In this document: piece after piece, positions 21,732-63,244 of the stretch
Position numbering within the stretch: position 1 is the first letter of the stretch
Layout of the letters: each line of letters opens with the position of its first letter
Virus record (IMG/VR): IMGVR_UViG_3300045004_000088
Coordinates: 128,001-192,000 of that record
Direction: 5' to 3' (one strand)
DNA: 64,000 nucleotides
From: a virus
Position numbers and translations under genes: made by a program
Notes under the pieces: generated by a model
What the model was told of the DNA's origin: nothing
The model's input: only the letters and a program-made list of their open reading frames with translations
Database searches by the model: none

Positions 21732-22721
21732 TTGCTTATGAACGGTCCCGATCCGAACCACCACGAGCAGAGTCTGACCCCTTGCAACGATAAGGGACTG
21801 ACGAACGACGAAAATCGTGATCCGCCGGAAGGGTATTGTGAAGGTCGGCCCTCGCTGCGACACGTTCCAGAGACGCAGGAGAGTTGGCTCGATGACGCGA
21901 TGACCAAGAAGCTCGGTCTTGGTTTCAACAAGCTCTGCGACCCGGTCCAAACGGGTCAGATTATCAACGACAACGAGAAGACGAACCCCAACGTCTTGTA
22001 CCGCTACTCGAAGGCCATCCGCTCGTGCGACGAGGCGGTAATGGACCTGTTCCGCAACTTGGTGATCATTGACGAAGACGGTGTGGCAAAGGCGGTTCCG
22101 ATCATCTGGGCGACTCAGGAACGGGCGGTGGCTCACGCCATCCAAGAGAACGTCAGTAAAGACGTTAACAATGTCGTCAACCGCATCAAGTTGCCGATGT
22201 TGGCGATCTCTTCGACGGACTTCAGTTTCAACCAAGACAGGTACACCTATCACCGCGCCATCGACTGGCTGAGGCAGAACGGACGGCCGGGGTTCGAGTC
22301 GCGGGAGAAGTACGATCACGGCACGGTGATGGGGGTGTCGCGCGGCATCCCCGTTGACGTGGGCTACACGCTGATTGCGTGGACCATGTACGTCGAGGAC
22401 ATGAATCAAATACTCGAACAGGTGATGACAAAATTCTCTCCGGTAGCATACATAAGCGTGCGTGGTGTGAGATGGGAAACCATTGTCAAACTCACCGGCA
22501 TTGCGAACAACTTGGAGACAGAGCCTGGGGATAATCAGTTGCGGGTGGTTAAGTTCCAATTCAATTTGAGTGCGGAAACGTATATACCCCAACCGATCAG
22601 TCGCGAAAAAACGGTGTTGAAGATCAAGACCGACTTCGTGGACGGGGTGAGCAAAGACAGCATCACCAGAGTCATTGATAGGCTGGAGACTGCCGTGAAC
22701 GAATTGGAATGTGACGGCTAA
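21732..22721 (+). CDS. hypothetical protein directly upstream of the sheath gene (possible tail-associated)
   Basis: 329-aa ORF; GGAGGA RBS; TTG start at 21732 or ATG at 21738. Confidence 0.6.
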   Translation: MLMNGPDPNHHEQSLTPCNDKGLTNDENRDPPEGYCEGRPSLRHVPETQESWLDDAMTKKLGLGFNKLCDPVQTGQIINDNEKTNPNVLYRYSKAIRSCDEAVMDLFRNLVIIDEDGVAKAVPIIWATQERAVAHAIQENVSKDVNNVVNRIKLPMLAISSTDFSFNQDRYTYHRAIDWLRQNGRPGFESREKYDHGTVMGVSRGIPVDVGYTLIAWTMYVEDMNQILEQVMTKFSPVAYISVRGVRWETIVKLTGIANNLETEPGDNQLRVVKFQFNLSAETYIPQPISREKTVLKIKTDFVDGVSKDSITRVIDRLETAVNELECDG

Positions 22722-22962: not shown

Positions 22963-25338
22963 ATGGCCATCCTACAAGGTTTTCCGCCGTCAAACACCAT
23001 CAGCCCATCGGTTCGTATTCAAGAGAACGACCTAAGCTTCATCGCTCCAGAGCAGTCGTTCCACCGGGCGGGCTTGGTCGGGTTTGCCAGCAAGGGACCG
23101 ATCAACAGCCCGACGCTGATTGCGACACAACGTCAACTGAACACGGTGTTCGGCTACCCGCACCCAGACGTGGGCGACCCGTATTTGATCTATGCGGCTT
23201 CGCAGTACCTGTTGGTAGCGAACGAACTTTACGTTTGCCGCGTGGCCGACGTTGACCCGGTTTCGGACGAACAAGCGACGACCGCCTCTGCCAACATGTT
23301 GGCGGCTGGTTCGATCATCGACATTTTCTCCTCGACCACCGGCCCGTACAGCTTCTCGCACGACAGCTTCTTCCGTTGGAGGCTGAACGGCCAGTTGAGC
23401 AACAAGACACTGACGATCCCGGCCGATGTGAACCGCGACTCGCCGGACGACGGCGACCCGTGGTCTGTGGCCGACTTGGTCGAATGGCTGAACCTGCAAA
23501 TTGACGCCGAGAACGACGGCGTGGAGTTCTACGTCCACGGCAGCGGCGGCAGCGCGACCATCGGTTTCCGCTCGGTGTGGGCATACGGCCCGCAGTCGGA
23601 ACTCGAACTGGTTTCGGTTCAGGACGACGCATACGGCGTGATGGGCATCGGCACGGGTCTGACCCCGGCCGAACTGACCGGCTCGGCCGACCGCTACCCG
23701 AACAACGGCTACACCTCGGCCGGCACCTTCAACTTCACGGGTCTGACGAACGTCTACCTCAACGTCGTGATCGACGGTACGGACAACGTGCTGATCGATG
23801 ACGTTTTGCAGACGATTGACCTGACCAACCTCGAAGGTTCCACTTGGACCACTTCGCAGGTTGTGGACGAGATCAACATTCAGTTGACGGGTCTGCCGGG
23901 TGGGTTCGTGGCCGAAGCAGTTGGCAACAACGTCCAGCTTCAAACTTTGGCTCGCGGTCGCGACTCCCGCCTGTTGGTGAAGTCCGACTCGACGGCCGCT
24001 TCGATCTTCGGATTGGCAAGCACCACGGCGGCTGGCGACAGCCCGATTGGTGTGACTGGTGACGCCGGCATCTACACCTTCGGCCGTGTCGAAGGCGAAG
24101 ACAACCTAACGGGTCAGATCTCGATGACGGTTACGGCCGAATCGACTGGCATCGAGGGCAACAACACGCGGGTCCAGATTGTCAACGACACCGCTCAGGG
24201 TACGTTCAAGATCGCGGTGTTCAACAACGGCGTGCAGTTGGAAAGTTGGGGCAACCTGACGAAGAACCAGTCTTCTTCCTTCTACGTCGAAACCTACATC
24301 GCTCTGGTGAGTGACTTCATCAGAGTCATCGACAACCCGGACATTGGCGCACCGCCGGCCGATACGAGCATTGCGGGTGTGGCACTGACGGGCGGTTCGG
24401 ACGGAATTCCGAGCGATCCTGACAAACAGGATGAAATTCTTGTCGGCTCCTTACTCAGTTATACAGGTATCTACACCTTCTCCGAGCCTGAGCAGATCGA
24501 CATCGACCTGATAGCGGTTCCGGGTCACGCAAGCACCACCGTGGTGATGAGCCTGTTGAGCTTGTGCCAGAGCTACCGTCAGGACTGCCTCGCGATCATC
24601 GACCCGCCGTTCGGCTTGACCGCCACGGAAGTCGTGTCGTGGCAGAACGGTAGCCACCCGCTGAACCTTACGCGGTTTGACTCCGACTTCGGCGCACTGT
24701 ACTGGCCGTGGGTGAAGATCTTCGACAGCTACAACGGCGTGTCCGTCTGGGTGCCGCCGTCAGGTTCGGTCATGGCGACCATCGCCAAGAGCGACTTCCT
24801 CACGGCCCCGTGGTTCGCACCGGCTGGTATCACCCGTGGTGTGGTTCCGGGCATCACCGACGTGTTCAACCGTCCGACATTGGGCGAGCGGGACACAATG
24901 TACGGCAACAGAAACTGCGTCAACCCGATTGTCCAGTTCGTGGACATCGACGGGTTCGTGATCTGGGGTCAGAAGACGCTCCAACGTCTGCCAACCGCTT
25001 TGGACCGCGTGAACGTTCGCCGGTTGCTGTTCGTGGTTGAGAAACAAATCAGGGCGGCTTCGAGAACGCTGTTGTTCGATCCGCACGACGATCAGTTCCG
25101 GTCGAGGTTCGTGAACCTCGCGACCAAGATCCTGACCGAGATTCAAGTCGGACGCGGTATCCACGCCTTCATCATCGATGCGGGTACTGACTTGAACAAC
25201 AGAGATGTAGTGGACCGCAACGAGTTCCGCGCTCAAATCGGTATCCAGCCGACCAGGGCTGCTGAGTTCATGTTCATCGAGTTCAGCGTCAACAGGACTG
25301 ACGACTTCTCGCAAACAACAGTGAACACCTCTAACTAA
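22963..25338 (+). CDS. contractile tail sheath protein
   Basis: 791 aa; N-term ...SVRIQENDLSFIAPEQSF...GFASKGPINSPTLIATQRQLNTVFG is typical of sheath N-termini; GGGAGA RBS. Confidence 0.8.
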   Translation: MAILQGFPPSNTISPSVRIQENDLSFIAPEQSFHRAGLVGFASKGPINSPTLIATQRQLNTVFGYPHPDVGDPYLIYAASQYLLVANELYVCRVADVDPVSDEQATTASANMLAAGSIIDIFSSTTGPYSFSHDSFFRWRLNGQLSNKTLTIPADVNRDSPDDGDPWSVADLVEWLNLQIDAENDGVEFYVHGSGGSATIGFRSVWAYGPQSELELVSVQDDAYGVMGIGTGLTPAELTGSADRYPNNGYTSAGTFNFTGLTNVYLNVVIDGTDNVLIDDVLQTIDLTNLEGSTWTTSQVVDEINIQLTGLPGGFVAEAVGNNVQLQTLARGRDSRLLVKSDSTAASIFGLASTTAAGDSPIGVTGDAGIYTFGRVEGEDNLTGQISMTVTAESTGIEGNNTRVQIVNDTAQGTFKIAVFNNGVQLESWGNLTKNQSSSFYVETYIALVSDFIRVIDNPDIGAPPADTSIAGVALTGGSDGIPSDPDKQDEILVGSLLSYTGIYTFSEPEQIDIDLIAVPGHASTTVVMSLLSLCQSYRQDCLAIIDPPFGLTATEVVSWQNGSHPLNLTRFDSDFGALYWPWVKIFDSYNGVSVWVPPSGSVMATIAKSDFLTAPWFAPAGITRGVVPGITDVFNRPTLGERDTMYGNRNCVNPIVQFVDIDGFVIWGQKTLQRLPTALDRVNVRRLLFVVEKQIRAASRTLLFDPHDDQFRSRFVNLATKILTEIQVGRGIHAFIIDAGTDLNNRDVVDRNEFRAQIGIQPTRAAEFMFIEFSVNRTDDFSQTTVNTSN

Positions 25339-25366: not shown

Positions 25367-25987
25367 ATGGCGCAACTCAAAAATCAGCCGATGGGCATGG
25401 GACAACTTGGCAAGACCAACGTTGTCTTCAAGCGGAAGTTCCGCTGGACCTTTGAAGTCATTACGAACTGTCCGGTGATCCCGAACGTTCCAGAGCATTT
25501 CGTCAAACTCGCTGCTCGGCCGAACCTGAGCATCGAGGAAACCGAAATCAACTTCTTGAACGGCAAGATGTGGATTCCGGGTAAGGGTACTTGGGAAACG
25601 ATCTCGGTAACATACTACGACGTATCCGGCACTGACGGCGACATGTCGTATGTGTACTCGTGGATCGCCACCGTGTACAACTTCCTGAACCCGATCCTGT
25701 TGACCCAGTCCTCGTCTCAGGACGGTTACGGCGGGACGGCGTTCCTCAACCTGTACGACGGTTGCGGTACGGCGATGGAAACTTGGACCCTCGGCAACAT
25801 GTGGCCGCTGACGGTCAACTTCGGCGAACTGGATTACGCGGCGTCCGAAGAGTGTACCGTCGAATTGACCTTGCGGTACTCGGAAGTGGCGTACAAGGCA
25901 CAGAACTTGTGTATGCAGCAGCCGATTGCGGCCTGCTCTGGCTGTGGTCCGTGTGTGGAAGTCCCGGCCCTCGTCGCACAGGGCTGA
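25367..25987 (+). CDS. tail tube protein (T4 gp19-family), paralog 1, with Cys-rich C-terminal tail
   Basis: KRKFRWTFEV...LYDGCG...FGELDYAASE...TLRY motifs shared with the three paralogs. Confidence 0.7.
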   Translation: MAQLKNQPMGMGQLGKTNVVFKRKFRWTFEVITNCPVIPNVPEHFVKLAARPNLSIEETEINFLNGKMWIPGKGTWETISVTYYDVSGTDGDMSYVYSWIATVYNFLNPILLTQSSSQDGYGGTAFLNLYDGCGTAMETWTLGNMWPLTVNFGELDYAASEECTVELTLRYSEVAYKAQNLCMQQPIAACSGCGPCVEVPALVAQG

Positions 25988-26002
25988 TATTGACAATCAA
26001 AG

Positions 26003-26036
26003 AAAAAGCCGACCTGAAAGGGTCGGCTTTTTTCGT
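26003..26036 (+). terminator. rho-independent terminator
   Basis: AAAAAGCCGACC-tgaaag-GGTCGGCTTTTTT. Confidence 0.65.
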
Positions 26037-26066
26037 TTTGAGACTCATTTATACACGGAGGACCAA

Positions 26067-26597
26067 ATGGCACAATCAATGGGATTCGGCATCCTGGCTT
26101 CGCCAAATGCCGTCTACAAAAGGAAAAACCGCTGGCTCATGAAGATCGACGGCATCGCCGACGACGGGACCAGTGCGTTGCCGCCGGCCAAAGGAGCGAG
26201 GCCGAGCCTCACCTTCAAGGAAATGGAAGCCCAACACCTCAACGAGACGATCTACTACCCAAGCAAAACCGAATGGAAGCCGATCCAACTGACGCTTTAC
26301 GACCTCAACATCTCAAGCGGCGGTTGCACCAATAAGGGCAAAAAGGTGTTCGACTGGGTCAAGAAAGTCTACGACCCGGAAAACGGCGGTTGGGTCGCGC
26401 CGTGCGACGTAGAGTTTAAGAAAGACTGCCGGTTGGAAATGTACGACGGCTGCGGTGAGATCCTCGAAACTTGGATCTTCGAGAACGCTTGGCCGCAGGT
26501 CGTAGAATGGGGCGAATTGGACATGTCCGAAGGCAACATCGTAATGCTCGACATCACGCTCAGATACGACCGCGCCTACCTCGTCAACCAGAACTAA
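26067..26597 (+). CDS. tail tube family protein, paralog 2
   Basis: Met 48 of ORF 25926..26597 with GGAGGA RBS; YKRKNRW...MYDGCGEILETW...LRYDRAY. Confidence 0.7.
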   Translation: MAQSMGFGILASPNAVYKRKNRWLMKIDGIADDGTSALPPAKGARPSLTFKEMEAQHLNETIYYPSKTEWKPIQLTLYDLNISSGGCTNKGKKVFDWVKKVYDPENGGWVAPCDVEFKKDCRLEMYDGCGEILETWIFENAWPQVVEWGELDMSEGNIVMLDITLRYDRAYLVNQN

Positions 26598-29858: not shown

Positions 29859-30202
29859 TACTGTTCCTTTGGCGTCTGTACTACCGACTGGGATTCAAAG
29901 TAGGTAAGCACTACAGCAGCCAAGTAGGACAGGAAACTGGCGGCGCACCCGCCCAACAAAACGACCACCGGGTGCCACGAGATGAGCCAGAAGGTCACGA
30001 AGAAGCCGACCCATGTGCCGCAACACTGGTAACACTCGATGATGCGGCTGAAGAATCCGGGGAGTTTGTTTTTGACCCAATCTCTGACGGGTTGAAAGAT
30101 GCTGCTGTCAACGATGATGTGTGTCATCCCGATGACGGCGAGTGCAAAGAACAACAGGACGGGTAGCGAGAGGGTGCTTTCCAAGTGTGGGAAAAATGTC
30201 AT
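29858..30202 (-). CDS. small membrane protein
   Basis: 114 aa with 3-4 hydrophobic helices. Confidence 0.5.
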   Translation of the reverse strand: MTFFPHLESTLSLPVLLFFALAVIGMTHIIVDSSIFQPVRDWVKNKLPGFFSRIIECYQCCGTWVGFFVTFWLISWHPVVVLLGGCAASFLSYLAAVVLTYFESQSVVQTPKEQ

Positions 30203-30203
30203 G

Positions 30204-30569
30204 TCATCTCCAAGCTGTTATACTGATGGTGTCGCCCTTGCGGTACACGACGACCTCGGCGTGTTCGCCCAGGCCGTCGAGACAATCGGTAGCGTTTTGA
30301 ATTTGGCACGTCCGGTTTGAAACGGCGTTCGGGTCAAAAGATCTGACCGAAACTTCCTGGCCGAGATACTCGCTTAGAACTGACAAATGCTCAGGTCGGA
30401 TCGCCTGTAGCAGTTCGATCTTGGTCCTAGCGGCCAAAGTTCTGAGAGCGGGAATGCTGTGTCCCGTGAACCATGTATCGAAGTAAGCTCTCAGGTCGGG
30501 GAGCTTGGCCCGGAGGACAGAGTCCTTCAGAACCAACGCCTCCACGTTCCCAAGATTTATTTCAATCAT
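30204..30569 (-). CDS. hypothetical protein
   Basis: C-terminal 121 aa of the long antisense ORF 30204..31622, taken from the internal Met (MIEINLG); the rest is antisense to 30657..31793. Confidence 0.45.
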   Translation of the reverse strand: MIEINLGNVEALVLKDSVLRAKLPDLRAYFDTWFTGHSIPALRTLAARTKIELLQAIRPEHLSVLSEYLGQEVSVRSFDPNAVSNRTCQIQNATDCLDGLGEHAEVVVYRKGDTISITAWR

Positions 30570-30656
30570 GATCAAGATCCGCAAAAAATTCCAAGTCGTT
30601 ACTCTCTGATTAGGGTAGTGAGCGACCAGAGCATTATAACGAAAACGGAGACAACC

Positions 30657-31793
30657 ATGTCCAATGACAACAACAAGATCTTCCGTCCCCGCAAAGCACA
30701 ACCCGGCGACGGCGATTCGCCGTTCAGCAACATCGACGCGGTGCGTGCGGCTGCGGCAGCGGACTCTGGGATGGAAGCCCCGCCGCTCATCGGCGAAAAC
30801 CCGGCGGTCAAGATTCAGGGTAACATGCCGCCACAATTCGTGCAAGCAATGAGCCAACAACGCAACTTGTCGCGAGAGGCCGCAGGCGAGGAAGTCGCCG
30901 ACGTGAAGTCGGGGTTCGGAAAGATGAAGAACCCGGAACAGGTCGCTCCCAAGAAGCCGCAGTTCAACAACGGCGACAAGCCGCTCACGTCGGGACTCAG
31001 CCCGCAAGCGAAGGCGTTGATCGACGGCCTCAAACCGAAGGCTGTTTATGACACCATCTGCCTGCCCTCGAAGGGCCGCTTCTACGACGGCCAGAACGGG
31101 CCATCGGACGGCATCCTCAACATCCGCCCGATGACCGGCGAAGAAGAACAAATCCTCGCGACACCGAGGTTCGTCCGCAAGGGGATGGCGGTCAACATGA
31201 TCTTCCAGCGGTGTATGCAGGAGCAGTTCCGCGCCGAAGACCTGTTGACCATCGACCGCACCTACCTGCTCATCTGGCTCCGGGGCATCAGCTACAGCCC
31301 GAACTACGACGTTGAGGTCAAGTGTCCGTTCACCGAGAAGAAGTTCACGGCGACGATCAACTTGAACGAACTGAACGTCGAAGAGTGTCCGGCAGACTTC
31401 GGCCCGGACCTTCAGGACGTTTTGCCGACGACCGGGTACAACTTCAACTACCGCCTCTCGACCGGCAAGGACGAGCAGGAGATCCAAGAACACCGCGACC
31501 GCCGCATGAAGATGTTCGGCGACAACGCGGGCGACGACACCCTGTTGCACCGCACGGCGATGTTGCTCAACGACATCGAGGGTGTGAACGACAAGAGGGA
31601 ACTCTTGACGCTGATCAAGCACCTGCCGATCAACGACGTGTCCTACATCCGCAACTGCATCAACGAACCGCCGTTCGGGGTTGACACGACCGTCACCCTT
31701 CTGTCTCCATACGCGAACGAAGAGTTCGAGACGGAGCTACCGCTCGACGCAAATTTTTTCTTCCCAAAGCGACGGCGGAAGGAGACGAACTAA
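30657..31793 (+). CDS. hypothetical tail-region protein (378 aa); candidate frameshift-extended tail assembly protein
   Basis: Met 67 of ORF 30459..31793 with GGAGACAACC RBS; ends 33 nt after a T_TTT_TTC slippery heptamer. Confidence 0.6.
   Translation: MSNDNNKIFRPRKAQPGDGDSPFSNIDAVRAAAAADSGMEAPPLIGENPAVKIQGNMPPQFVQAMSQQRNLSREAAGEEVADVKSGFGKMKNPEQVAPKKPQFNNGDKPLTSGLSPQAKALIDGLKPKAVYDTICLPSKGRFYDGQNGPSDGILNIRPMTGEEEQILATPRFVRKGMAVNMIFQRCMQEQFRAEDLLTIDRTYLLIWLRGISYSPNYDVEVKCPFTEKKFTATINLNELNVEECPADFGPDLQDVLPTTGYNFNYRLSTGKDEQEIQEHRDRRMKMFGDNAGDDTLLHRTAMLLNDIEGVNDKRELLTLIKHLPINDVSYIRNCINEPPFGVDTTVTLLSPYANEEFETELPLDANFFFPKRRRKETN
31754..31760 (+). promoter_or_regulatory. candidate -1 programmed ribosomal frameshift slippery site T_TTT_TTC
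   Basis: In the zero frame of the 30657 gene. The -1 frame stays open for 91 codons to TAA at 32033-32035. Confidence 0.3.
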
Positions 31794-32167
31794 GCGGGGA
31801 GCCGAACCCGGATGTCACGGACGAAGAACGTTCGAGTCTCGCACTCTGGAAAAACCTGATGGAAGAGATCTTCTTCTTCCAGTACCACATGCACCTCGAC
31901 ATGTTTACGGTCATGAAGTACGAAGTGCCGGAACGCAAGTGGCTTATCGACAGGTTCATCCAGCAGAAAAACAAGGAAAACGAGCAAATGGAAGCCGAAC
32001 GCCGGAAGGCGAAAGCTTCTGCAAAGAGGCGATAATGTTGGGTGACTCCAATGTCTGGATCGCGAAGCGTAAATACCGGAAACGCTGCGAGTGCGACTTT
32101 GAAGCAAAGTTGGCTCGCAGGGTCGCAGAATTGCGACGAAACCAGTTACGCCGCGTAGGAGCATCCA

Positions 32168-32884
32168 ATGGCGACCAAAGAAAGAAACCAGAACCCCGTT
32201 TGCAACGACACAGTCATTCTGCGTCTGTACCAGTTCAATGAGAACGCGCCGGCCGATGTCAACGAGGTTCAGAAGGTAGAGATCTACGTTCACGATCACA
32301 CCGTGGAAGGCGGCAGACGGCTGGTTCAGACGATTACCGACATCGCCCGGAGTGATGTCGGCCAGTACAGCGTGGTGGTGGACCTGACATCTCCGACCTA
32401 CACCATCGGCCAGTATTGCGACGTGTGGACGATCAGTTACGAGGCCGACGAATGTCCGGGGACGAGGACGTTCGAGTTCGAGATCAACGCAGACAAGTGG
32501 TACGGAAACAGCGACCAGTTCATTTGGGACTTCTACTTCGCGTTCAGACCCACCAGATTCCGAAAGAACGAAAGAAAGTACATCGTCGTTGAAGTGACGC
32601 CAAACGTGCCACACCTCAGTGACTTGGAACGGTACTACCAGACCCTACAGACTTACCCGGACCTGTTCATCACGATCCAGATGCGATGCGTGGAGTGCAT
32701 GCCGGCCGAGGAAGACCTACAAGTCGTCGTGGACCGCGCCAGAGTGTCACTGACCAGCAGCCGGCTCGGTCAATACTTCCTCGACACCACCGAACTGGCG
32801 TGCGGAATTTACGATGTCTGGTTTGATCTAGAAGTGGGCGGCAACACCTACATCTCGCCGAAGAACCAGATCCAAATCTTCTAA
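32168..32884 (+). CDS. hypothetical protein
   Basis: 238-aa ORF with GGAGCATCC RBS. Confidence 0.55.
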   Translation: MATKERNQNPVCNDTVILRLYQFNENAPADVNEVQKVEIYVHDHTVEGGRRLVQTITDIARSDVGQYSVVVDLTSPTYTIGQYCDVWTISYEADECPGTRTFEFEINADKWYGNSDQFIWDFYFAFRPTRFRKNERKYIVVEVTPNVPHLSDLERYYQTLQTYPDLFITIQMRCVECMPAEEDLQVVVDRARVSLTSSRLGQYFLDTTELACGIYDVWFDLEVGGNTYISPKNQIQIF

Positions 32885-32904
32885 ACACTCTTCACAGGAG
32901 AGAT

Positions 32905-33546
32905 ATGGGAAACCCATGTAACACTGGGTCTGGGAACCTTGCGCAATTTACGGAGTTCAACTGGATGAATGGGAAGGTGTTCGTCCCCAATCAAATGCCC
33001 GGTTTGACACACTTGAACCTGGGCAATCAGAAGAAAACGAACACCGGCCCCGGCCCGTCCGACGAAAAGCCCTTCAGCCACGAACTCGAAAAAATCACCG
33101 GCAAAAAGCCTGCCCCGCCCGGCGAAATGAACTGGGAAAGAACCACACCAATGGGCATGGGCCAACACCCGTTCGCCCTGCCGACCGCGATCATCCCCAG
33201 ACAATTCCGCTTCTTGGTGGGAACCGAACTCAGCAAGACGTTCCAGAACTACGTCAAGGACTTGGAGATCGACTGGATCGGCAAACGCATCAAGATCAAC
33301 TTGTACGAAACGATGGAGTTCGACACCGATCAGGTGCTGTGTGCTTTCTCCGACAAGAAGGCCAGCCGGCCGTTGCTGGTAACGCTGTTCGACGGCTGTG
33401 GAAACCCGATCATGGGCTACAGGTTCAACGGGGTGACTTTGAAGACGTATTCGACGCCGCTGAACTACGAGAGCAGCGACGTGTTAACGAACAAGGCGGT
33501 ACTGGCGTTCGCGTCGGTAGACAAGCTGAAGAAGCCCGCCAAATGA
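32905..33546 (+). CDS. tail tube family protein, paralog 3
   Basis: RQFRFLVGTE...LFDGCGNPIMGYRFNGVTL...LNYESSDVLTNKAVLAF; GGAGAGAT RBS. Confidence 0.65.
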   Translation: MGNPCNTGSGNLAQFTEFNWMNGKVFVPNQMPGLTHLNLGNQKKTNTGPGPSDEKPFSHELEKITGKKPAPPGEMNWERTTPMGMGQHPFALPTAIIPRQFRFLVGTELSKTFQNYVKDLEIDWIGKRIKINLYETMEFDTDQVLCAFSDKKASRPLLVTLFDGCGNPIMGYRFNGVTLKTYSTPLNYESSDVLTNKAVLAFASVDKLKKPAK

Positions 33547-33596
33547 CCCTCGCTCTGGGGCGGGGACAAGAAGTCCCCAATTTTCCAAAGGAACAC

Positions 33597-34159
33597 ATGC
33601 CACTACACATTCAGCCGAACACCGTATACAAACGCAAATTCCGATGGACCATCGAGGGCAAATTCCCCGGCGGCGAGATCGAACAACACTTCATCAAGGT
33701 CGCGGCGCGACCGGAACTAACAATTGAAGAAGTCGAACTGACCGGGATCAAATTCCCGGCGAGCCAAAAATGGCAATCGATTGCCGTCACGTCTTATGAC
33801 ACACCCAAGCAAATGTACTCAGCTTTAGCCGAGTCTTATTTCGAGACGCCAAATGAATGCCCGACCGAGAAAAAAGGCACAGTCACACTGAGACTGTACG
33901 ACGGCTGCGGTTGGCTTTTGGAATCTTGGGAACTCAACGGGCATACTTCTCGAAAGCTACGTTCACAGAGTACGACACTGAAGACGTGGAATTTACGATT
34001 CAGTACGATAGTGCCAAATACACCCCAAAAGAAAAACTCACATCGTTACCGCCTCACCTGAGTCCTCCACCACCCTCGCCGCCGAAGATCAAATGCCCTA
34101 ATTGTCAGCACGAATTTACACACGCCTTCGGATTGGGGATGTGTTCGACAATTTTTTGA
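33597..34159 (+). pseudogene. tail tube family paralog 4, interrupted by a 1-nt frameshift near 33939-33944
   Basis: YKRKFRWTIEG...LRLYDGCGWLLESWELNG runs in frame A to 33941. AYFSKATFTEYDTEDVEFTIQYDSAKY continues in frame B (ORF 33857..34159). A one-G shortfall in aacGGGcatac causes the shift. Confidence 0.5.
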
Positions 34160-34268
34160 CTTGATTTTGTATCAAGGATGATACAATAAAGCGTCCTCGG
34201 TGGCTGCTCACGCCGCCAAACAATGCCCGATTGAGGACTAAGGGTGTTCAAAAAAAAGGATGTGAGTC

Positions 34269-35168
34269 ATGGTCTACAGCAATCACTTCGTCATGTGCGT
34301 CATGGTGGACGGCAAGCCACTCAAGGAAAAAGCAGACGGAACCGTTCAGATTCCGATGAATTCCGAGTACGCAATCCGGTTCAAAAACAAGAATAGTCGG
34401 CGGGCGCTCGTCAAGTTCACCCTCGACGGTGAGGACGCGAGCGGCGGCGGCTACGTCATCGACGGACACAAGGACATCGAAATCAGGCGGTTCTCCGACC
34501 GCGATCAGACGTTCAAGTTCGTAGATCTGAACAGCGGAGAAGCACAACTCGAAGGCAAGAACGGCCCCAACACGGACGGCAGCAAGGGCGTCATCGAAGC
34601 GAAGTTCTACCTCGAAAAAGAATACGTCGCGCCGGCACCGCTCCCGGTTCCAGTGCCGATGCCGTATCCATATCCGGTGCCGATGCCGTACCCGGTTCCG
34701 CGTCCGTCTCCGTGGCGTCGTCCATACGAGCCGTACTACCTCAGCGACAACACCAGATCCCGCAAGGGGATGGTGGCAGAGCCGACGTGGTCAACCAACT
34801 CGACTCCGACACGCGAAGCGTGCGGCGGTGGCGGCACGATGTCCTCATGTAGTCTGGGCATGGCAGCATCCAGCCCGGAATGCACGAGCTACAACTGCTC
34901 CGACGCCGCTCCGACACCGACGTACTCGATGTCGCCGCCGGTGATCGAAGGGGTGACGGTCGGTGGTGGTGCTTCGGGTCAAACCTTCGTGTCCGTGTAC
35001 TTCAACGCGGAAACGGATCACGTCACACTGAGACTAATCCTGCGAGGGGTCAAGGAAGGCACGGTGGTGCAAGAGGCAGTCGAGGAATCGGAATACTGCC
35101 GCAACTGCGGAGCGAAGAAGCCCAGAAAGAACGACAAGTTCTGCGGCAAATGCGGAAGCAAGTTCTAA
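34269..35168 (+). CDS. hypothetical protein with PVPMPYPYPVPMPYP repeats and a C-terminal double zinc ribbon
   Basis: 299-aa ORF; C-term YCRNCGAKKPRKNDKFCGKCGSKF. Confidence 0.55.
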   Translation: MVYSNHFVMCVMVDGKPLKEKADGTVQIPMNSEYAIRFKNKNSRRALVKFTLDGEDASGGGYVIDGHKDIEIRRFSDRDQTFKFVDLNSGEAQLEGKNGPNTDGSKGVIEAKFYLEKEYVAPAPLPVPVPMPYPYPVPMPYPVPRPSPWRRPYEPYYLSDNTRSRKGMVAEPTWSTNSTPTREACGGGGTMSSCSLGMAASSPECTSYNCSDAAPTPTYSMSPPVIEGVTVGGGASGQTFVSVYFNAETDHVTLRLILRGVKEGTVVQEAVEESEYCRNCGAKKPRKNDKFCGKCGSKF

Positions 35169-35203
35169 ACGAAGAAGGCCGGGGAGATCTCCCCGGCCTT
35201 CTT

Positions 35204-35839
35204 TCATCTCGATCCCAAATAAGTGTCGGCATTGAGCATCGAATGGTGCAGAGCATGAGCGTTCCCAAGAACGTCGTGGAACTTGGGCTGCAAGAACTGT
35301 TTGTACGCTTCGAGCATCTGAACCGCGCAAACACGCGGCTCCATCGCTCCAATCGCGGTTCCGAGGCCCGGACACAGCATCGAGTCGATCTTGTGGGCTT
35401 TGGCCGCTCGTAGGGCCGCACGGAACGCCAAGAAAGCGTTAACGGTCTGCCCGACTTTCATCGGCACACGCATGGTCGGGGCCGAGATCAAGTAAGGCGT
35501 GCGGTTCACGCGGGCGTTGTGTTGAGGATGATGCGGCAGCGTCTCCCTCATGTCGATCACAGCCGCCTGTCCGACCAAAAGCTCGCCGTCGAACTCGGTC
35601 CAGATCTTGGCGCGAAGGTTGTCGCCGATGCCCCAACCGAAGTATTCGCTGTAGACGAAGTCGATCCCGCCGTCCATGTAGCCGAACGAGTTCGCGGGAC
35701 TGACGATGCTCATCACATCGAGGTGTTCGCCCTCTTGGAAGATGTCGCCACAAGAGGCTTTGATGTTGTTGTTTCCCGCGAAAACTTGTTGCCAAGCGCG
35801 GACGAGTTCTGGATTGCGGTCGCGAAGGAAGATTTTCAT
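35204..35839 (-). CDS. macro-domain protein (ADP-ribose binding/processing)
   Basis: Met 76 of ORF 35204..36064; VMSIVSPANSFGYMDGGIDF resembles the macro-domain NAAN...GGGV signature; weak RBS. Confidence 0.55.
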   Translation of the reverse strand: MKIFLRDRNPELVRAWQQVFAGNNNIKASCGDIFQEGEHLDVMSIVSPANSFGYMDGGIDFVYSEYFGWGIGDNLRAKIWTEFDGELLVGQAAVIDMRETLPHHPQHNARVNRTPYLISAPTMRVPMKVGQTVNAFLAFRAALRAAKAHKIDSMLCPGLGTAIGAMEPRVCAVQMLEAYKQFLQPKFHDVLGNAHALHHSMLNADTYLGSR

Positions 35840-35893
35840 GCAGTAACCAAATATTCGCGGCGAAAAATTAGCGCAAGTTACTTGTAATATATT

Positions 35894-36139
35894 ATGAGCG
35901 TAATTTACTTCCTGGGTCTTGAAGACCAAGCCGGACTCGACAACCTCCTCGCGATCCGCCAAGAGAACGAACGCAGGCAGGCTCTGACTTTCGATGACTA
36001 CCAACTGCCGGCCTTCTACGAAAACACAATGCCCGACATTCGTCGCGTAGACAAATGCGGGCATATCTTTGAGGCCGTGAAGGTCAACAACGACACGTTC
36101 GTGCTGACCGTTGGTGGCAACGCCTACGGAGCCAAGTGA
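35894..36139 (+). CDS. small hypothetical protein
   Basis: 81-aa ORF; no SD but an AT-rich TAATATATT stretch just upstream (possible leaderless transcript). Confidence 0.45.
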   Translation: MSVIYFLGLEDQAGLDNLLAIRQENERRQALTFDDYQLPAFYENTMPDIRRVDKCGHIFEAVKVNNDTFVLTVGGNAYGAK

Positions 36140-36598
36140 TCACAGGCCGATCTGACGCCGCATCGCGGTGATCTTTTCGAGCGGCATCCAGTCGGCGAAA
36201 TCGCCCGCGTCGTACAGTTCGGCGAGTTGATCGTAGCTGACCCAGTTCCAGCCTTCGCACTTGTGCGGCTCGGCGTTGACCGGCTCGCCCGCGACCCAGT
36301 CGGCCACCATGAAGATCGTGATGTAGTGCTTATCGTAGTTCTTCATCACGTCGTTGGTGACGAACACCGCGTTCTGCACGGGGAAGGTACGCACACGCAC
36401 CTTGAAGTTCGGCCCGCACTCTTCCCGCAGTTCGCGGAACAGGCACTCTTCCCACGTTTCGTTCCAGTCGAGATGCCCGCCCGGAAACGAGAGCAGACCG
36501 GCCGCGTGTGAGCCTTTCCGCCGGCCCACAAGAACCTTCCCGTCCTTGATGACCATCACGCCGATCCCGACACGCGGGTTCTTTTGAGGGGAATCCAT
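36140..36598 (-). CDS. Nudix hydrolase (second copy in the window)
   Basis: Nudix box GGHLDWNETWEECLFRELREECG. Confidence 0.7.
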   Translation of the reverse strand: MDSPQKNPRVGIGVMVIKDGKVLVGRRKGSHAAGLLSFPGGHLDWNETWEECLFRELREECGPNFKVRVRTFPVQNAVFVTNDVMKNYDKHYITIFMVADWVAGEPVNAEPHKCEGWNWVSYDQLAELYDAGDFADWMPLEKITAMRRQIGL

Positions 36599-59458: not shown

Positions 59459-59540
59459 GCGGTTGTGGCGAAATTGGTAGACGCGCGGTCTTCAGATGGC
59501 CGTCCCGCAAGGGGTGTGGGTTCGACTCCCACCAACCGCA
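59459..59540 (+). tRNA. tRNA-Leu(CAG), type II
   Basis: Acceptor GCGGTTG/CAACCGC. Anticodon stem CGGTC/GGCCG with loop TTCAGAT. Long variable arm. T-arm GTGGG-TTCGACT-CCCAC. No encoded CCA. Confidence 0.7.
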
Positions 59541-59607
59541 CTGTAAGACCCGGCAACGGGTGTTCTTTGACAACTGGGCGAGACAACAAGCGGTTCTCGG
59601 AGCAGCT

Positions 59608-59862
59608 ATGAAAAACGTTTGGTTGGAATTTTTGCAGTTGAAGACCGATTTCCCGCTCGGATCGTGGGTACAAATGACACTCGATCCTTTGGACGATTAC
59701 TTTGAATCGATCTGGGCTTCTGATATGATGGGGGTAGTGACGGGGTACAACATCATGCAGTCACTGGTGGTGGTGTACTTCGACAACAACGTCACGATGC
59801 AGTGCGGCCCGAAACTACTGAAGGTCGTTGAAAGCCCTTTGGTCCATGACTGGGACATGTGA
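59608..59862 (+). CDS. small hypothetical protein
   Basis: Met 17 of ORF 59560..59862 with GGAGCAGC RBS. Confidence 0.45.
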   Translation: MKNVWLEFLQLKTDFPLGSWVQMTLDPLDDYFESIWASDMMGVVTGYNIMQSLVVVYFDNNVTMQCGPKLLKVVESPLVHDWDM

Positions 59863-60092
59863 AAATGACGGACAAAGAAGAGATCGAGATCCTTCAGGCT
59901 CGTATCGATGAGTTGAAGGGGGTAAAGAGCGGCCCGCCGAAGTGTTTCCACTGTGGCGGGAGCGGCGAGGTCGCGTGGGAAGGAACCTGCTACTACTGCG
60001 TGGGGAGCGGTTACTGCTACCCACCGAACGATCCCAACCATTGGAGCAACAAGAAAGAAGAAAACGGACCTTATTACGATCAGGTCTGGTGA
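59859..60092 (+). CDS. small Cys-rich protein
   Basis: CFHCGGSG...CYYCVGSGYC; start overlaps the upstream stop. Confidence 0.45.
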   Translation: MKMTDKEEIEILQARIDELKGVKSGPPKCFHCGGSGEVAWEGTCYYCVGSGYCYPPNDPNHWSNKKEENGPYYDQVW

Positions 60093-60097
60093 GATAA

Positions 60098-60179
60098 GCC
60101 AAAGTGACGGAAATGGCAGACGTACTCCGCTCAAAACGGAGCGCCGCAAGGCGTGTGGGTTCGATTCCCACCTTTGGCA
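60098..60179 (+). tRNA. tRNA-Leu(CAA), type II
   Basis: Acceptor GCCAAAG/CTTTGGC. Anticodon stem CTCCG/CGGAG with loop CTCAAAA. Variable arm CGCCGCAAGGCGTGT. T-arm GTGGG-TTCGATT-CCCAC. Confidence 0.7.
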
Positions 60180-60185
60180 CTAACT

Positions 60186-60266
60186 GTACCGGCTGAACAT
60201 GGGCGAGTTCCCCTGGCTGTAACCCAGGTGCCTTCGGCTGTAGAGGTTCGACTCCTCTCCGGTACA
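60186..60266 (+). tRNA. tRNA-Tyr(GTA), type II
   Basis: Acceptor GTACCGG/CCGGTAC. D-stem GAA/TTC. Anticodon stem CCTGG/CCAGG with loop CTGTAAC. Variable arm contains a GCC-TTCG-GC tetraloop hairpin. T-arm AGAGG-TTCGACT-CCTCT. Confidence 0.65.
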
Positions 60267-60268
60267 CT

Positions 60269-60486
60269 GCATCCGCAACGGAATAGCCTTGATCGGTCTT
60301 GGGATAATTAACAAGGTGCTGCTCGATAAGTAGCGAAAGCTACCGCTTGCGGGCGTAAGGTCGGGGTGCAAGTATCGACCTCAAGACGGCGGATGCAATC
60401 GGGTGTCGATCCACACGGCAGACTGTAAATCTGCTGCCATTATCCTGTGTGGCGGTCGGCGATGGGTTCAACTCCTACGGCACCCA
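60269..60486 (+). ncRNA. unresolved structured RNA: 128-nt helix-closed domain with GNRA tetraloops plus a tRNA-like 3' part
   Basis: GCATCCGC (60269-76) pairs with GCGGATGC (60389-96) around GTAGC-GAAA-GCTAC and C-GTAA-G. The 3' part has GGGTGTC/GGCACCC acceptor-like ends and GCAGA-CTGTAAA-TCTGC, but no room for a D-arm. Confidence 0.3.
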
Positions 60487-60499
60487 CTGGAGACTCGCG

Positions 60500-61018
60500 A
60501 TGAGCGACATGATGGAACTTCTGGCGAAACGGTACGCCGAACCCGATCTGAACCCGTATCTTTTCGAGATCGGACAAAAGGTGAGGCTCCGCAAGGGCCG
60601 CTCGAACGACGGGCAGACGCCTCAACATTGGGACGGGGCAGTCGCAACAGTCGAAAGTCGATACTGCACCGGACTCCACAAGGAACACTGGTACAAGTTG
60701 AGACACTCGAACGGCCAACTGGCAGAGTTCTGCGAAGACGAGATCGACGCACGCTACGCGCGGCGGCGAGTCAACTTCAAAGAAGTTCTGGCCGAGGAGA
60801 ACCCGAAAGCCATCGTGTTTGACGGACTCGAAGAAGCCATGATCGGCGTCGGCGGTCAAACGACGCAGAGGCTCGCGGTCTACAGTGTCCGAAAGATCAT
60901 GGAACTGCTCAGGCAGAAACACGGCGACGAACAAGCGGCCCAAGAGTGGTTCGACTTCAACATCGCGACCCTCTGGGCCGGCGAGAATACTCCGATCTTG
61001 GTGTACGATGAAGTCTGA
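60500..61018 (+). CDS. hypothetical protein
   Basis: Met 18 of ORF 60449..61018 with GGAGACTCGCG RBS. Confidence 0.5.
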   Translation: MSDMMELLAKRYAEPDLNPYLFEIGQKVRLRKGRSNDGQTPQHWDGAVATVESRYCTGLHKEHWYKLRHSNGQLAEFCEDEIDARYARRRVNFKEVLAEENPKAIVFDGLEEAMIGVGGQTTQRLAVYSVRKIMELLRQKHGDEQAAQEWFDFNIATLWAGENTPILVYDEV

Positions 61019-61280
61019 AGACAATCTGCGGGTGGCTCCTCACGAGGAAACACCCAGGCAGAAGTATCTGTGTGACAACGCGAGACACCTGATCTGCGTG
61101 CCGTATTCCATTGATAATCTGCACAAGATGGCGGCAGATTTGGGAATCAAGAAGTGCTGGTTCCACAAGGACCATTACGACATTCCGAAGCGACGGATCG
61201 CCGAGATCACCGCGAAGTGCGAGGTCGTGGACAGCCGAGAAATCGTCAAGATCGTGAGGCCGAAGAACTCTGCGAAGTGA
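61008..61280 (+). CDS. hypothetical protein
   Basis: Met 42 of ORF 60885..61280; overlaps the upstream gene end by 11 nt. Confidence 0.45.
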   Translation: MKSEDNLRVAPHEETPRQKYLCDNARHLICVPYSIDNLHKMAADLGIKKCWFHKDHYDIPKRRIAEITAKCEVVDSREIVKIVRPKNSAK

Positions 61281-61289
61281 TAGAAATTT

Positions 61290-61371
61290 GGGTCTGCTAA
61301 CGCTGTGGGAAGCTACGTTGACTGTAAATCAGCCGCCTTCGGGATAAGAGGTTCGATTCCTCACAGACCCA
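61290..61371 (+). tRNA. tRNA-Tyr(GTA), second copy, slightly non-canonical D region
   Basis: Acceptor GGGTCTG/CAGACCC. Anticodon stem GTTGA/TCAGC with loop CTGTAAA. Variable arm has a CC-TTCG-GG hairpin. T-arm GAGG-TTCGATT-CCTC. Confidence 0.5.
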
Positions 61372-61377
61372 CTGAAT

Positions 61378-61452
61378 GCCTACCAAATGCTAATCTAGTG
61401 AAAGCTTAGGTTTGAAAAACCTAGTAGCCCGGAGCGTAACCGGGGGTAGGCA
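61378..61452 (+). tRNA. tRNA-like, possibly tRNA-Phe(GAA) with non-canonical T-loop
   Basis: Acceptor GCCTACC/GGTAGGC. D-stem GCT/AGC. Anticodon stem TAGGT/ACCTA with loop TTGAAAA. T-arm CCCGG-AGCGTAA-CCGGG lacks TTC. One to two extra nt at positions 8-10. Confidence 0.3.
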
Positions 61453-61471
61453 CTAGCCAGTATGCTCGTTC

Positions 61472-61542
61472 GGGATTACATGACAATTGGTTAAGTCGGG
61501 GAACTCAAATTCCCTATAGCTGGTTCAAATCCAGCGTATATC
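61472..61542 (+). tRNA. tRNA-like fragment or pseudo-tRNA (anticodon-like loop ACTCAAA, intact T-arm, no pairing acceptor)
   Basis: GGGGA-ACTCAAA-TTCCC hairpin plus canonical T-arm GCTGG-TTCAAAT-CCAGC. The 3' flank GTATATC does not complement the 5' GGGATTA. Confidence 0.25.
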
Positions 61543-61566
61543 TCGTGCAAATTTTGACTGGCAACT

Positions 61567-61639
61567 GCCGCGCAGGTGTAAAGGGTAGACACGCTTCCCT
61601 GAAAAGGAAGAGGACTCGGTTCGACTCCGAGGGGCGGCA
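61567..61639 (+). tRNA. tRNA-Phe(GAA)
   Basis: Acceptor GCCGCGC/GGGCGGC (one G-G mismatch). D-stem GTGT/ACAC. Anticodon stem CTTCC/GGAAG with loop CTGAAAA. T-arm CTCGG-TTCGACT-CCGAG. Confidence 0.65.
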
Positions 61640-61740
61640 CTTGAATAGTTTCGGCCTATGGCTGAAGAACGCCAAACCGTTGTCAGATAGACGCCAGAGG
61701 TGACTAGATTTTAGTAGGTGGTCCCTACTAGGAGTCAGTC

Positions 61741-61947
61741 ATGAACATCGACAACGTGAAGAGTGGCGTGAGCAAAGAGGAAGTCATGAGGCTGCTGCGT
61801 GCGGCCGGCATGCTCCAAGACTCGACGCCGGTGAAGCTGCAACAGATGCGGGCGGTTCGCGTGTCGCGGCCGGAACCCCGGCCCGAACACGAAGAACTCG
61901 GCATGAGCCACAGCGAGTGGTTCCGCCGCTACGTCAGCGACTGGTAA
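61741..61947 (+). CDS. small hypothetical protein
   Basis: GGAG RBS downstream of a TAGTAGG/CCTACTA hairpin. Confidence 0.45.
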   Translation: MNIDNVKSGVSKEEVMRLLRAAGMLQDSTPVKLQQMRAVRVSRPEPRPEHEELGMSHSEWFRRYVSDW

Positions 61948-62178
61948 TCACTTCCCGGCAACGAGCTTGCGGAGGTCGCTGGACGACTTAGACGGGTTAC
62001 GGATGATTTCTTTCACCAGTTCCTCGCCTTTGGAACTGGTGATCTTCGACCAGACCTTTTCGAGCGTGGTGCGGTTGTACTTCTTGACCAGCTTCTTCAG
62101 CCCGTCGATAAAGTCCTCGACGGCTTCGATGTCGCTGCTGCCCGTACCCGACTCGACAAATTGACGAAACGATTGCAT
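61948..62178 (-). CDS. small hypothetical protein
   Basis: 76-aa ORF with GGAGGG RBS; convergent with 61741..61947. Confidence 0.5.
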   Translation of the reverse strand: MQSFRQFVESGTGSSDIEAVEDFIDGLKKLVKKYNRTTLEKVWSKITSSKGEELVKEIIRNPSKSSSDLRKLVAGK

Positions 62179-62193
62179 AGACCCTCCAGTCTA

Positions 62194-62237
62194 TGTATCG
62201 ACTCGGAAGGAAAATATGTATCGACTCGGAAGGAAAA
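62194..62237 (+). repeat. tandem direct repeat 2 x tgtatcgactcggaaggaaaa (period 23); second copy forms the 5' end of tRNA-Ser(GGA)
   Basis: Exact duplication, visible in the sequence. Confidence 0.5.
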
Positions 62238-62313
62238 CCGGATGGGTGTCCGGCATCGCCTGGAAAGTGATTGGTGCCTTAAACGGCATGGGGATCGATA
62301 CCTCTTCCTTCCG
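62228..62313 (+). tRNA. tRNA-Ser(GGA), type II, non-canonical (T-loop ATCGATA, 4-bp T-stem)
   Basis: Acceptor GGAAGGA/TCCTTCC (7/7). D-arm CCGG-ATGGGTGT-CCGG. Anticodon stem ATCGC/GTGAT with loop CTGGAAA. Variable hairpin GTGCC-TTAAAC-GGCAT. T-arm GGGG-ATCGATA-CCTC. Confidence 0.5.
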
Positions 62314-62416
62314 CTATGTGTGACTGCAAAATGTGTCGGGCGCGGAAACGCAAAAAGCTCATCGACACGCTCCATTCAAAAGGCGTCATCCTCGTACACA
62401 GGGGCGAAGACTTTCT

Positions 62417-62728
62417 ATGCCAAACAAGTTCGAGGGCCGCTGGCGTTGGTGCAACCACTGCCAGTGCGCGAGAATCCGATGCTTCAAGTGCGGCAACATC
62501 TCGTGTAGCGGCGGCGGATGCGTCGAGTGCCACGACGAATTCACCGAAGCGATCAGAATGAGCGGCACGGGCGAACACCCTAGCAAAGAAGAACTCCTCG
62601 CCGACACCGAAGGCATTAGAATTGATGCCGAGTGGGGCGAAAAGGTATGGGACGCATGGTCGAGTACACAATCAAAAAAGGCAGCAAGCACCAGAACAGA
62701 CGGTGCGGCTACTGCGACGGGCGAATGA
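62417..62728 (+). CDS. Cys-rich small protein (uncertain; overlapping alternative ORFs)
   Basis: Met 29 of ORF 62333..62728; CNHCQCARIRCFKCGNISCSGGGCVEC; tail low-complexity. Confidence 0.35.
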   Translation: MPNKFEGRWRWCNHCQCARIRCFKCGNISCSGGGCVECHDEFTEAIRMSGTGEHPSKEELLADTEGIRIDAEWGEKVWDAWSSTQSKKAASTRTDGAATATGE

Positions 62729-62871
62729 CGCCCGGCCGCAAGTTCGTACTCGACCCGGAACGGTACGAAAACCAACTGCCAATGATCTTCCACCCGCAGT
62801 GCCGCGAAGCGTGGGTGAAGCGTGGCAAACAACCGCTGTGCCGAGGTAACTGTGACACTGTACATGCTTGA
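62656..62871 (+). CDS. small Cys-containing hypothetical protein
   Basis: Internal Met of ORF 62632..62871; CGYCDG...CREAW...CRGNC. Confidence 0.4.
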   Translation: MVEYTIKKGSKHQNRRCGYCDGRMTPGRKFVLDPERYENQLPMIFHPQCREAWVKRGKQPLCRGNCDTVHA

Positions 62872-63052
62872 GTGGTACAACGGCCTCGAATACGCAGACG
62901 CCGAGACGACACTGTTGGGCGTTTATCGAAGTGAAGAAACGCGATCCGAGGCCGAACAACGGTATCGCGAGTCGGAGGAACGTTGGCCCTTCACTAGCAA
63001 GGAAGGGAAGTTCGTGAAGTGGGAGATCCAGTTGGACAAGGATCTGGTGTGA
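62864..63052 (+). CDS. small hypothetical protein
   Basis: Met 15 of ORF 62822..63052; ATGCTTGA overlap with the upstream stop. Confidence 0.4.
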   Translation: MLEWYNGLEYADAETTLLGVYRSEETRSEAEQRYRESEERWPFTSKEGKFVKWEIQLDKDLV

Positions 63053-63055
63053 TAC

Positions 63056-63140
63056 GGAAGGGACTGTGAGTGGCTACACGACTTTGTTTGCTAAACAAAG
63101 ATACGGCAACGTATTGCGGGTTCGACGCCCGCTCCTTCCG
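63056..63140 (+). tRNA. tRNA-Ser(GCT), type II, with extended 6-bp anticodon stem
   Basis: Acceptor GGAAGGG/TCCTTCC. D-stem TGTG/CACG. Anticodon stem CTTTGT/ACAAAG with loop TTGCTAA. Variable hairpin ATACG-GCAA-CGTAT. T-arm GCGGG-TTCGACG-CCCGC. Confidence 0.6.
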
Positions 63141-63143
63141 CTC

Positions 63144-63233
63144 GGCTCTGTGCGCTAAATGGTAAAGCGGCAAGTTTCAAAAACTTGTGTCTCCCCGCGT
63201 GGGAAATTATCGGTTCGAGTCCGATCAGAGCCA
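63144..63233 (+). tRNA. tRNA-Leu(CAA), second copy, type II
   Basis: Acceptor GGCTCTG/CAGAGCC. D-stem CGC/GCG. Anticodon stem CAAGT/ACTTG with loop TTCAAAA. 21-nt variable arm. T-arm ATCGG-TTCGAGT-CCGAT. Confidence 0.65.
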
Positions 63234-63244
63234 CTTGAATCTTT

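Follow-up and report, generated by a model that had tools for sequence, protein, structure and literature searches.

A one-base frame break in a tail-tube-family gene of a huge phage, probably a recent null or leaky allele

Does the interval between positions 33597 and 34159 of the phage DNA considered here hold two small hypothetical open reading frames (ORFs), or a single gene that has slipped out of frame, and, in the latter case, does the slip lie in the data, in the genome, or in the way the message is decoded? The window to which all positions refer is the whole stretch of DNA that was analysed, 64,000 nucleotides of a virus (positions 128,001 to 192,000 of IMG/VR record IMGVR_UViG_3300045004_000088). 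A first-pass annotation had described the interval as a paralog of the tail-tube family that a frameshift of one nucleotide, in a G run, divides in two, a description with which the family profile, the predicted fold, the paralogs and the orthologs all agree, and it had left three causes open: a sequencing or assembly error, a recent pseudogenisation, or a +1/-1 recoding site.

The sequence and its translation bear out the proposed coordinates, the junction, and the direction of the shift, in which one extra G restores the frame. The gene lies on the plus strand, and its likely start is the ATG at 33597-33599, because the gene of the closest ortholog is called from the equivalent ATG (position 2791 of that contig) and because a Shine-Dalgarno-like AAGGA, read from the sequence at 33588-33592, points to the same place (the two together spanning 33588-33599). 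From this ATG, frame A (33597-33941, codons 1-115) opens with MPLHIQ and translates as MPLHIQPNTVYKRKFRWTIEG...LYDGCGWLLESWELNG, up to the AAC GGG at 33936-33941; the GGG run itself, the site of the missing G, occupies 33939-33941. An unshifted ribosome would then read 39 unrelated codons, HTSRKLRSQSTTLKTWNLRFSTIVPNTPQKKNSHRYRLT, and terminate at the TGA at 34059-34061 (out-of-frame tail, 33942-34061). Frame B, which is -1 relative to frame A, is open from 33857 to the TGA at 34157-34159 and reads AYFSKATFTEYDTEDVEFTIQYDSAKY...KIKCPNCQHEFTHAFGLGMCSTIF; from the last G of the run onward (33941-34159, codons 116-187 and the stop) it reads AYFSKATFTEYDTEDVEFTIQYDSAKYTPKEKLTSLPPHLSPPPPSPPKIKCPNCQHEFTHAFGLGMCSTIF and encodes the last core beta-strands and the C-terminal tail. 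Re-reading one G thus gives a fused protein of 187 amino acids with its junction at residues 115/116, for which the predicted tryptic peptides are LYDGCGWLLESWELNGAYFSK across the junction of the shifted product, LYDGCGWLLESWELNGHTSR for the unshifted product, and, for example, ATFTEYDTEDVEFTIQYDSAK within frame B. The existing JGI gene call (P0002, 172 amino acids) begins at ATG 33543, 54 nucleotides upstream of ATG 33597 and overlapping the stop of the preceding gene, and it ends in the out-of-frame tail, which has no counterpart in any homolog of our protein alignment (A2). The start of this call is probably wrong and its C-terminus is meaningless, and the interval 33597-34159 should be annotated as one frame-disrupted tube-family gene instead of two hypothetical ORFs.

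Judged from its sequence, the interval is one gene for a tail-tube paralog with the gp19/Hcp fold and a proline-rich Cys/His C-terminal tail. The fused protein matches the phrog_4542 "tail tube protein" profile with an E-value of 1.3e-8 over residues 11-146, that is, across the junction; no Pfam tube model matches it at an E-value of 0.1 or better, and two of its homologs (P0011 and P0014) carry PF06841. An AlphaFold model of the fused protein, built from 14 sequences, has a mean pLDDT of 72.6, with core blocks at 80-92, and places the junction within a beta-strand (residues 106-123) that is followed by the core strands 131-137 and 139-144. Foldseek relates this model to Afp, PVC, Hcp, and phage tube chains with a probability of 1.00, at E-values of 3.5e-4 and weaker and with modest TM-scores of 0.37-0.44.

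The frame-B end of the protein had been described as a proline-rich, zinc-ribbon-like tail, and the first half of that description stands: a proline-rich linker leads into a C-terminal Cys/His knuckle (34085-34156), KIKCPNCQHEFTHAFGLGMCSTIF, recognised in the A2 alignment and conserved in the subfamily, with knuckle residues C167, C170, H172, and C183, the first two of them nearly invariant in A2. As for the zinc ribbon, the only Pfam match is a sub-threshold one to Zn_ribbon_4 (E-value 0.018, 15.4 bits against a cut-off of 30.3), and model confidence at the knuckle is low (pLDDT 35-57). Within the subfamily (P0003-P0017) the tail follows the pattern MG[IL]GxLG, then KCPxCxHEF, then C(N/S)xI[FV] at the extreme end. 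This tail is similar to the arm with which ordinary tube paralogs begin, MGMGQLGKTNVVF|KRKF and MGFGILASPNAVY|KRK (25367-25420 and 26067-26120), and it looks as if that arm had been relocated to the C-terminus, behind a Cys/His knuckle; in two relatives (P0007 and P0016) the motif occurs at each end of the protein, and three others (P0080, P0102, and P0145) have MGIGxxG inserted in mid-protein.

The surroundings of the gene are, by sequence, a T4-like contractile-tail module of a huge phage. A gp15-like sheath stabiliser gene (21732-22721) and a T4 baseplate-hub protein gene (30459-31793) are recognised by family matches, and the sheath gene (22963-25338) by phrog_23 with an E-value of 8e-72. 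The size of the phage is indicated by contigs of the window strain of up to 476 kb and by the 595-kb LR756511, an uncultured phage that holds a relative of the gene; the six-tRNA cluster at 59459-63234 on the plus strand (Leu-CAG, Leu-CAA in two copies, Tyr-GTA, Phe-GAA, and Ser-GCT) fits a huge phage as well. Directly after the sheath gene, on the plus strand, lies an intact tube paralog (25367-25987; hhalign against the family alignment, E-value 1.1e-45), probably the major tube protein, to which the fused protein is 33% identical without interruption over residues 8-152 (BLASTP E-value 7e-24). A second intact paralog, likewise on the plus strand, occupies 26067-26597 (hhalign E-value 2.2e-30), its ATG at 26067 lying inside a listed TTG-initiated ORF (25926-26597) according to the translation. 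The split gene had been counted as the fourth paralog, a count that holds only approximately: these two are clear, ORF 32905-33546 shares with the family just a short LFDGCG stretch (hhalign probability 53%, BLASTP E-value 0.001), and ORF 32168-32884 shows no similarity to it. Since the split gene adjoins the baseplate-hub genes, we infer that it encodes a baseplate-proximal tube protein. The next gene downstream (34269-35168, plus strand) specifies 299 amino acids, proline-rich in the middle (PAPLPVPVPMPYPYPVPMPYPVPRPSPW) and ending in a zinc ribbon (Pfam Zn_ribbon_3, below threshold, E-value 2.5e-4), and was assigned to no family; just 3' of the tail genes stand a macro-domain gene (35204-36064) and a NUDIX-domain gene (36140-36598), both on the minus strand and known from Pfam marks on the identical JGI contig.

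What the ancestral gene looked like can be read from its relatives. The closest ortholog (P0001, with its DNA on contig L001) is intact, 187 amino acids long, and 88% identical to the fused protein at 100% coverage. In a DNA alignment of the window with this contig and two further contigs of the window strain (A1: window, L001, L002, and L003), the run is marked by a single gap column: the ortholog has GGGG (AAC GGG GCT TAC, within AACGGGGCT), and the other three have GGG (AAC GGG CAT AC). The proposal that one added G would restore a contiguous paralog is thereby confirmed, the closest ortholog carrying exactly one more G at that place. All 13 homologs in A2 run uninterrupted over the junction (LYDGCG..E.WEL.[GD]A[YF][IF]S...), most of them sharing the KCPxCxHEF...C(N/S)xIF tail, and so does the gene on a further contig (L004); LR756511 matches in a single tblastn piece (residues 11-142, 30% identity). 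A profile search of 1.84 billion representative proteins returned 2112 relatives; among the best 150, the match reaches at least profile position 148 in nearly every case, whereas the JGI call from the window strain ends at about 127. Because the homologs are uninterrupted over the junction, a single gene is the ancestral state, and the window lineage acquired the one-base deletion later. Beyond these relatives the searches returned little: blastn of 30000-36000 found no close DNA relatives among deposited phages, tblastn found a relative there only in LR756511, scans of IMG/VR and JGI metagenomes with the fused protein gave just distant relatives or an unrelated zinc-ribbon protein, and exact-pattern scans of GTDB genomes and IMG/VR, with either GGG or GGGG allowed, gave nothing.

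It is extremely improbable that the gene is genuinely split, such that the frame-A product and a frame-B product of 100 amino acids with its own start would together form one functional tube subunit. An ATG at 33857 does open frame B upstream of the junction, as such an arrangement would need, but no Shine-Dalgarno-like sequence precedes it, both products would carry 28-39 out-of-frame residues, and the division would fall inside a single beta-strand. Moreover, the orthologs show one gene at 33597-34159 and never two separate ones: none in A2 or among the best 150 relatives is divided in this manner, and the frame-B ORF was called by the gene caller of no assembly.

Besides the JGI call, a few of the best 150 relatives do end near the same profile position, and on inspection they proved heterogeneous. 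One (P0060, L009 834-1560; a 2-kb Logan contig from DRR333436) has a different one-base (-1) break, at TAT CAT|TG TGG CCG, which lies 3-4 codons beyond the equivalent site and outside any G run, after which the homology continues in the -1 frame as LWPQAANFGDLDYASSDEVVIELTLRY. Another (P0140, L011 1501-2110; a 279-kb huge-phage contig, JGI 3300041077) is a tube gene directly after a sheath gene that lacks about 30 codons, out of frame, between LDGCGEIE and IELTLRY at a short direct repeat, ATCGAATCGAAC; the gap is either a real deletion or a mis-assembly. In two more (P0094/L010, ENA ERZ4201038, at 1.09x coverage; P0115/L012, ENA ERZ19041759, a 547-bp scaffold) the homology stops right after LYDGC(G) and the sequence beyond is unrelated in all three frames, so these contigs may be chimeric joins at a motif common to the paralogs. 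The idea that a recurring break point might signal programmed recoding was rejected, the other cases being unrelated lesions or poor contigs; the clustering of end points is largely an ascertainment effect, since high-scoring truncated matches can only be truncated late in the protein.

Whether the GGG allele exists outside the assembly is a separate matter. The frame-A product is found on 6 contigs, namely one from JGI 3300044451, a Logan contig (SRR35359074) that occurs in 5 samples, and four contigs of 0.2-1 Mb; the two contigs fetched, L002 (compared over 6519 bases) and L003 (over 4659 bases), show 100% identity to the window and the same G-run length. The frame-disrupting indel relative to the intact ortholog thus recurs at the level of assemblies, and an exact look-up in a collection of 15 billion proteins found no intact allele of the window strain (the fused protein), nor any record of the frame-B ORF or of the 154-amino-acid frame-A product. 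Since the GGG genotype has been assembled in at least six data sets, on contigs of 30 kb to 476 kb, it is abundant, although a single site or time series may have supplied all six assemblies, which would then represent one clonal population.

These observations bear on the possibility that a G was lost from a short homopolymer through an error of sequencing or consensus calling, the true genome having GGGG and an intact gene, which we regard as distinctly unlikely. That possibility draws on the nature of the lesion, a single base in a homopolymer, on the perfect preservation of the remainder of the gene, and on a family that is otherwise always intact, both in A2 and among the best 150 relatives. 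It has to contend, however, with the recurrence of the allele on 6 contigs from two independent pipelines (JGI and Logan), one of which finds it in 5 samples, with the complete identity of the fetched contigs to the window, and with the absence of a GGGG allele of this strain from the record. Typical homopolymer errors occur in longer runs than one of 3-4 bases, and the length of the present run counts against an error accordingly. There are 277 G/C runs of at least 4 bases in the window, and yet its sheath, hub, and 957-amino-acid genes are intact; all four neighbouring genes, too, are intact in the window and in the ortholog's contig and match without frame breaks. (The run count was the only part of this survey used, since spurious antisense ORFs, at 56% GC, confounded a greedy ORF tiling of the window.) That the GGG reflects a random error of assembly or reads is very unlikely and a systematic error at a run of 3-4 bases is unlikely; of the causes first proposed, sequencing or assembly error therefore recedes, the 6 contigs having come through two assembly pipelines and those fetched being identical to the window.

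If the break is real, its age can be estimated from what has happened downstream of it. Compared with the ortholog, dN/dS is 0.085 upstream of the break (frame A) and 0.064 downstream (frame B), at a dS of about 0.8, and frame B has acquired no extra stops or indels; decay or relaxed selection 3' of the lesion was accordingly not found in this comparison. By a Poisson bound, neutral evolution of the 3' part amounts to no more than some 0.027 substitutions per site, or roughly 3% of the divergence. Because constraint downstream is as strong as upstream (0.064 against 0.085), the break must be very recent, or bypassed, or an error, and the undecayed frame B fits a pseudogene only if the lesion arose within at most about the last 3% of the divergence. 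The absence of downstream decay is equally expected under an error or under efficient bypass, and that an abundant genotype should lack a protein so strongly constrained in relatives (dN/dS about 0.08) is unexpected and counts against a null allele.

This leads to the question of whether the break is bypassed during translation. The full-length protein might still be made by -1 ribosomal frameshifting at AAC GGG C: once GGG had been decoded, a backward slip of one base would place the tRNA-Gly on CGG and make GCA the next codon, so that the product would run ...NGAYFS as in the ortholog. This could occur either as low-level spontaneous leakage sufficient for a low-copy baseplate protein or at a newly evolved programmed site. 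We consider this unlikely, notwithstanding several features that speak for it: frame B is without any decay (no additional stop or indel; dN/dS 0.064), several data sets contain the genotype in abundance, re-reading one G gives exactly the conserved NGAYFS, the window, unlike the ortholog, has a modest hairpin of -12.3 kcal/mol that begins 8 nucleotides after the GGG, and tail-tube genes with a programmed frameshift are known, SPP1 gp17.1* (PMC9022992) being one. Against them, the shift point CTC AAC GGG CAT contains no slippery heptamer of the form X XXY YYZ, and a tRNA-Gly that moved from GGG to CGG would be mispaired at the first codon position. Two z-scores were obtained for the downstream fold, -1.1 (the value for the hairpin, with 27 of 200 shuffles folding at least as well) and -1.5 (18 of 200); neither is significant, and the ortholog does not share the fold. 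The site is not conserved, the break being absent from the 88% identical ortholog, from 13 of 13 homologs, and from nearly all of the best 150 relatives, which are in frame; and known shifts in tube genes follow a complete tube domain, whereas the zero-frame product here is a truncated core.

An upstream alternative, a shift at the A6 run at 33869-33874 (GAG AAA AAA GGC, 33866-33877), was rejected as well, because the register of the run is wrong, the ortholog's contig does not conserve it, and it lies upstream of the invariant LYDGCG motif, which a shift there would destroy. Scans around the gene with Rfam and for promoters and terminators gave nothing relevant. The +1/-1 recoding site entertained by the first-pass annotation is thus unlikely, since slippery motif, significant structure, and ortholog conservation are all lacking and the break falls in mid-domain. 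The most specific form of the idea, that the GGG is a working non-canonical -1 recoding site at which the tRNA-Gly slip from GGG to CGG, perhaps aided by the hairpin, yields a small set amount of the full-length paralog, is a long shot; if true, it would explain how an abundant huge-phage genotype combines the break with an undecayed frame B, and a small set amount would suffice for a protein needed in few baseplate copies. Only if the frameshift proves to be decoded would the locus bear on a long-standing open question.

The explanation that we favour, and hold to be probable, is a genuine and very recent single-G deletion that has turned a conserved tube paralog into a null or very leaky allele; of the three causes originally left open, recent pseudogenisation, so understood, fits best, the lesion being young by dN/dS. 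In this explanation an ancestral GGGG would have lost one G, most likely by replication slippage, changing AAC GGG GCN to AAC GGG CAT. Normal translation would then depart from the conserved frame partway through a core beta-strand, add 39 unrelated residues, and stop at 34061, and the resulting product of 154 amino acids, without the last three beta-strands and the tail, would presumably be non-functional. The deletion would be present in the DNA of the phage population and evolutionarily very young, and the allele would be a natural null or a strongly hypomorphic one. The phage may tolerate it by relying on its two intact tube paralogs, or through a trace of spontaneous frameshifting that provides the small number of copies required. 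An abundant huge phage would then offer what may be a natural knockout of a tail-tube paralog under strong constraint, and the locus could show whether paralogs of this kind are dispensable.

Among known systems, the lambda G/GT-type -1 shift in the tail assembly chaperones is a familiar case of programmed frameshifting in a tail module. In SPP1, a programmed +1 shift converts gp17.1 into gp17.1* by adding an FN3 domain after the complete tube domain (PMC9022992). Our locus resembles both in being a tail-module gene in which conserved sequence continues in another frame; theirs, however, are slippery sites, conserved among relatives, which follow a complete domain and give two products that both fold, whereas the break in the window is strain-specific, is without a slippery site, and cuts a core beta-strand. 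By descent the gene sides with the T4 gp19-type tube, Hcp, and Afp1-Pvc1 family (PF06841, phrog_4542), with which it shares the profile match, the PF06841-bearing homologs, the predicted fold, and a place in a T4-like tail module with sheath, gp15-like, and baseplate-hub genes; it differs in having no Pfam tube match at an E-value of 0.1 or better, in being frame-broken in the window strain, and in its proline-rich linker and Cys/His knuckle, which are absent from the solved tube proteins matched. T4 gp48 and gp54 are baseplate-tube junction proteins, tube-fold paralogs encoded with hub genes, and the present gene is like them in adjoining baseplate-hub genes rather than the sheath, but it has no specific sequence or fold match to them, its best fold matches being generic tube proteins. 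Phase-variable homopolymer tracts are typically 7 or more bases long, and a contingency locus is not what we see here, because the tract has only 3 G, or 4 G in the ortholog, and the fetched contigs of the window strain all carry a tract of the same length. From ordinary frameshift pseudogenes the locus differs in that no secondary decay is visible and the genotype is abundant, the loss of function being presumed; it shares with them a G run one base shorter than that of the ortholog, a premature stop 40 codons later, and a lack of recoding signals. The single-G deletion is in this sense an ordinary kind of event, in an uncharacterised subfamily of tube proteins.
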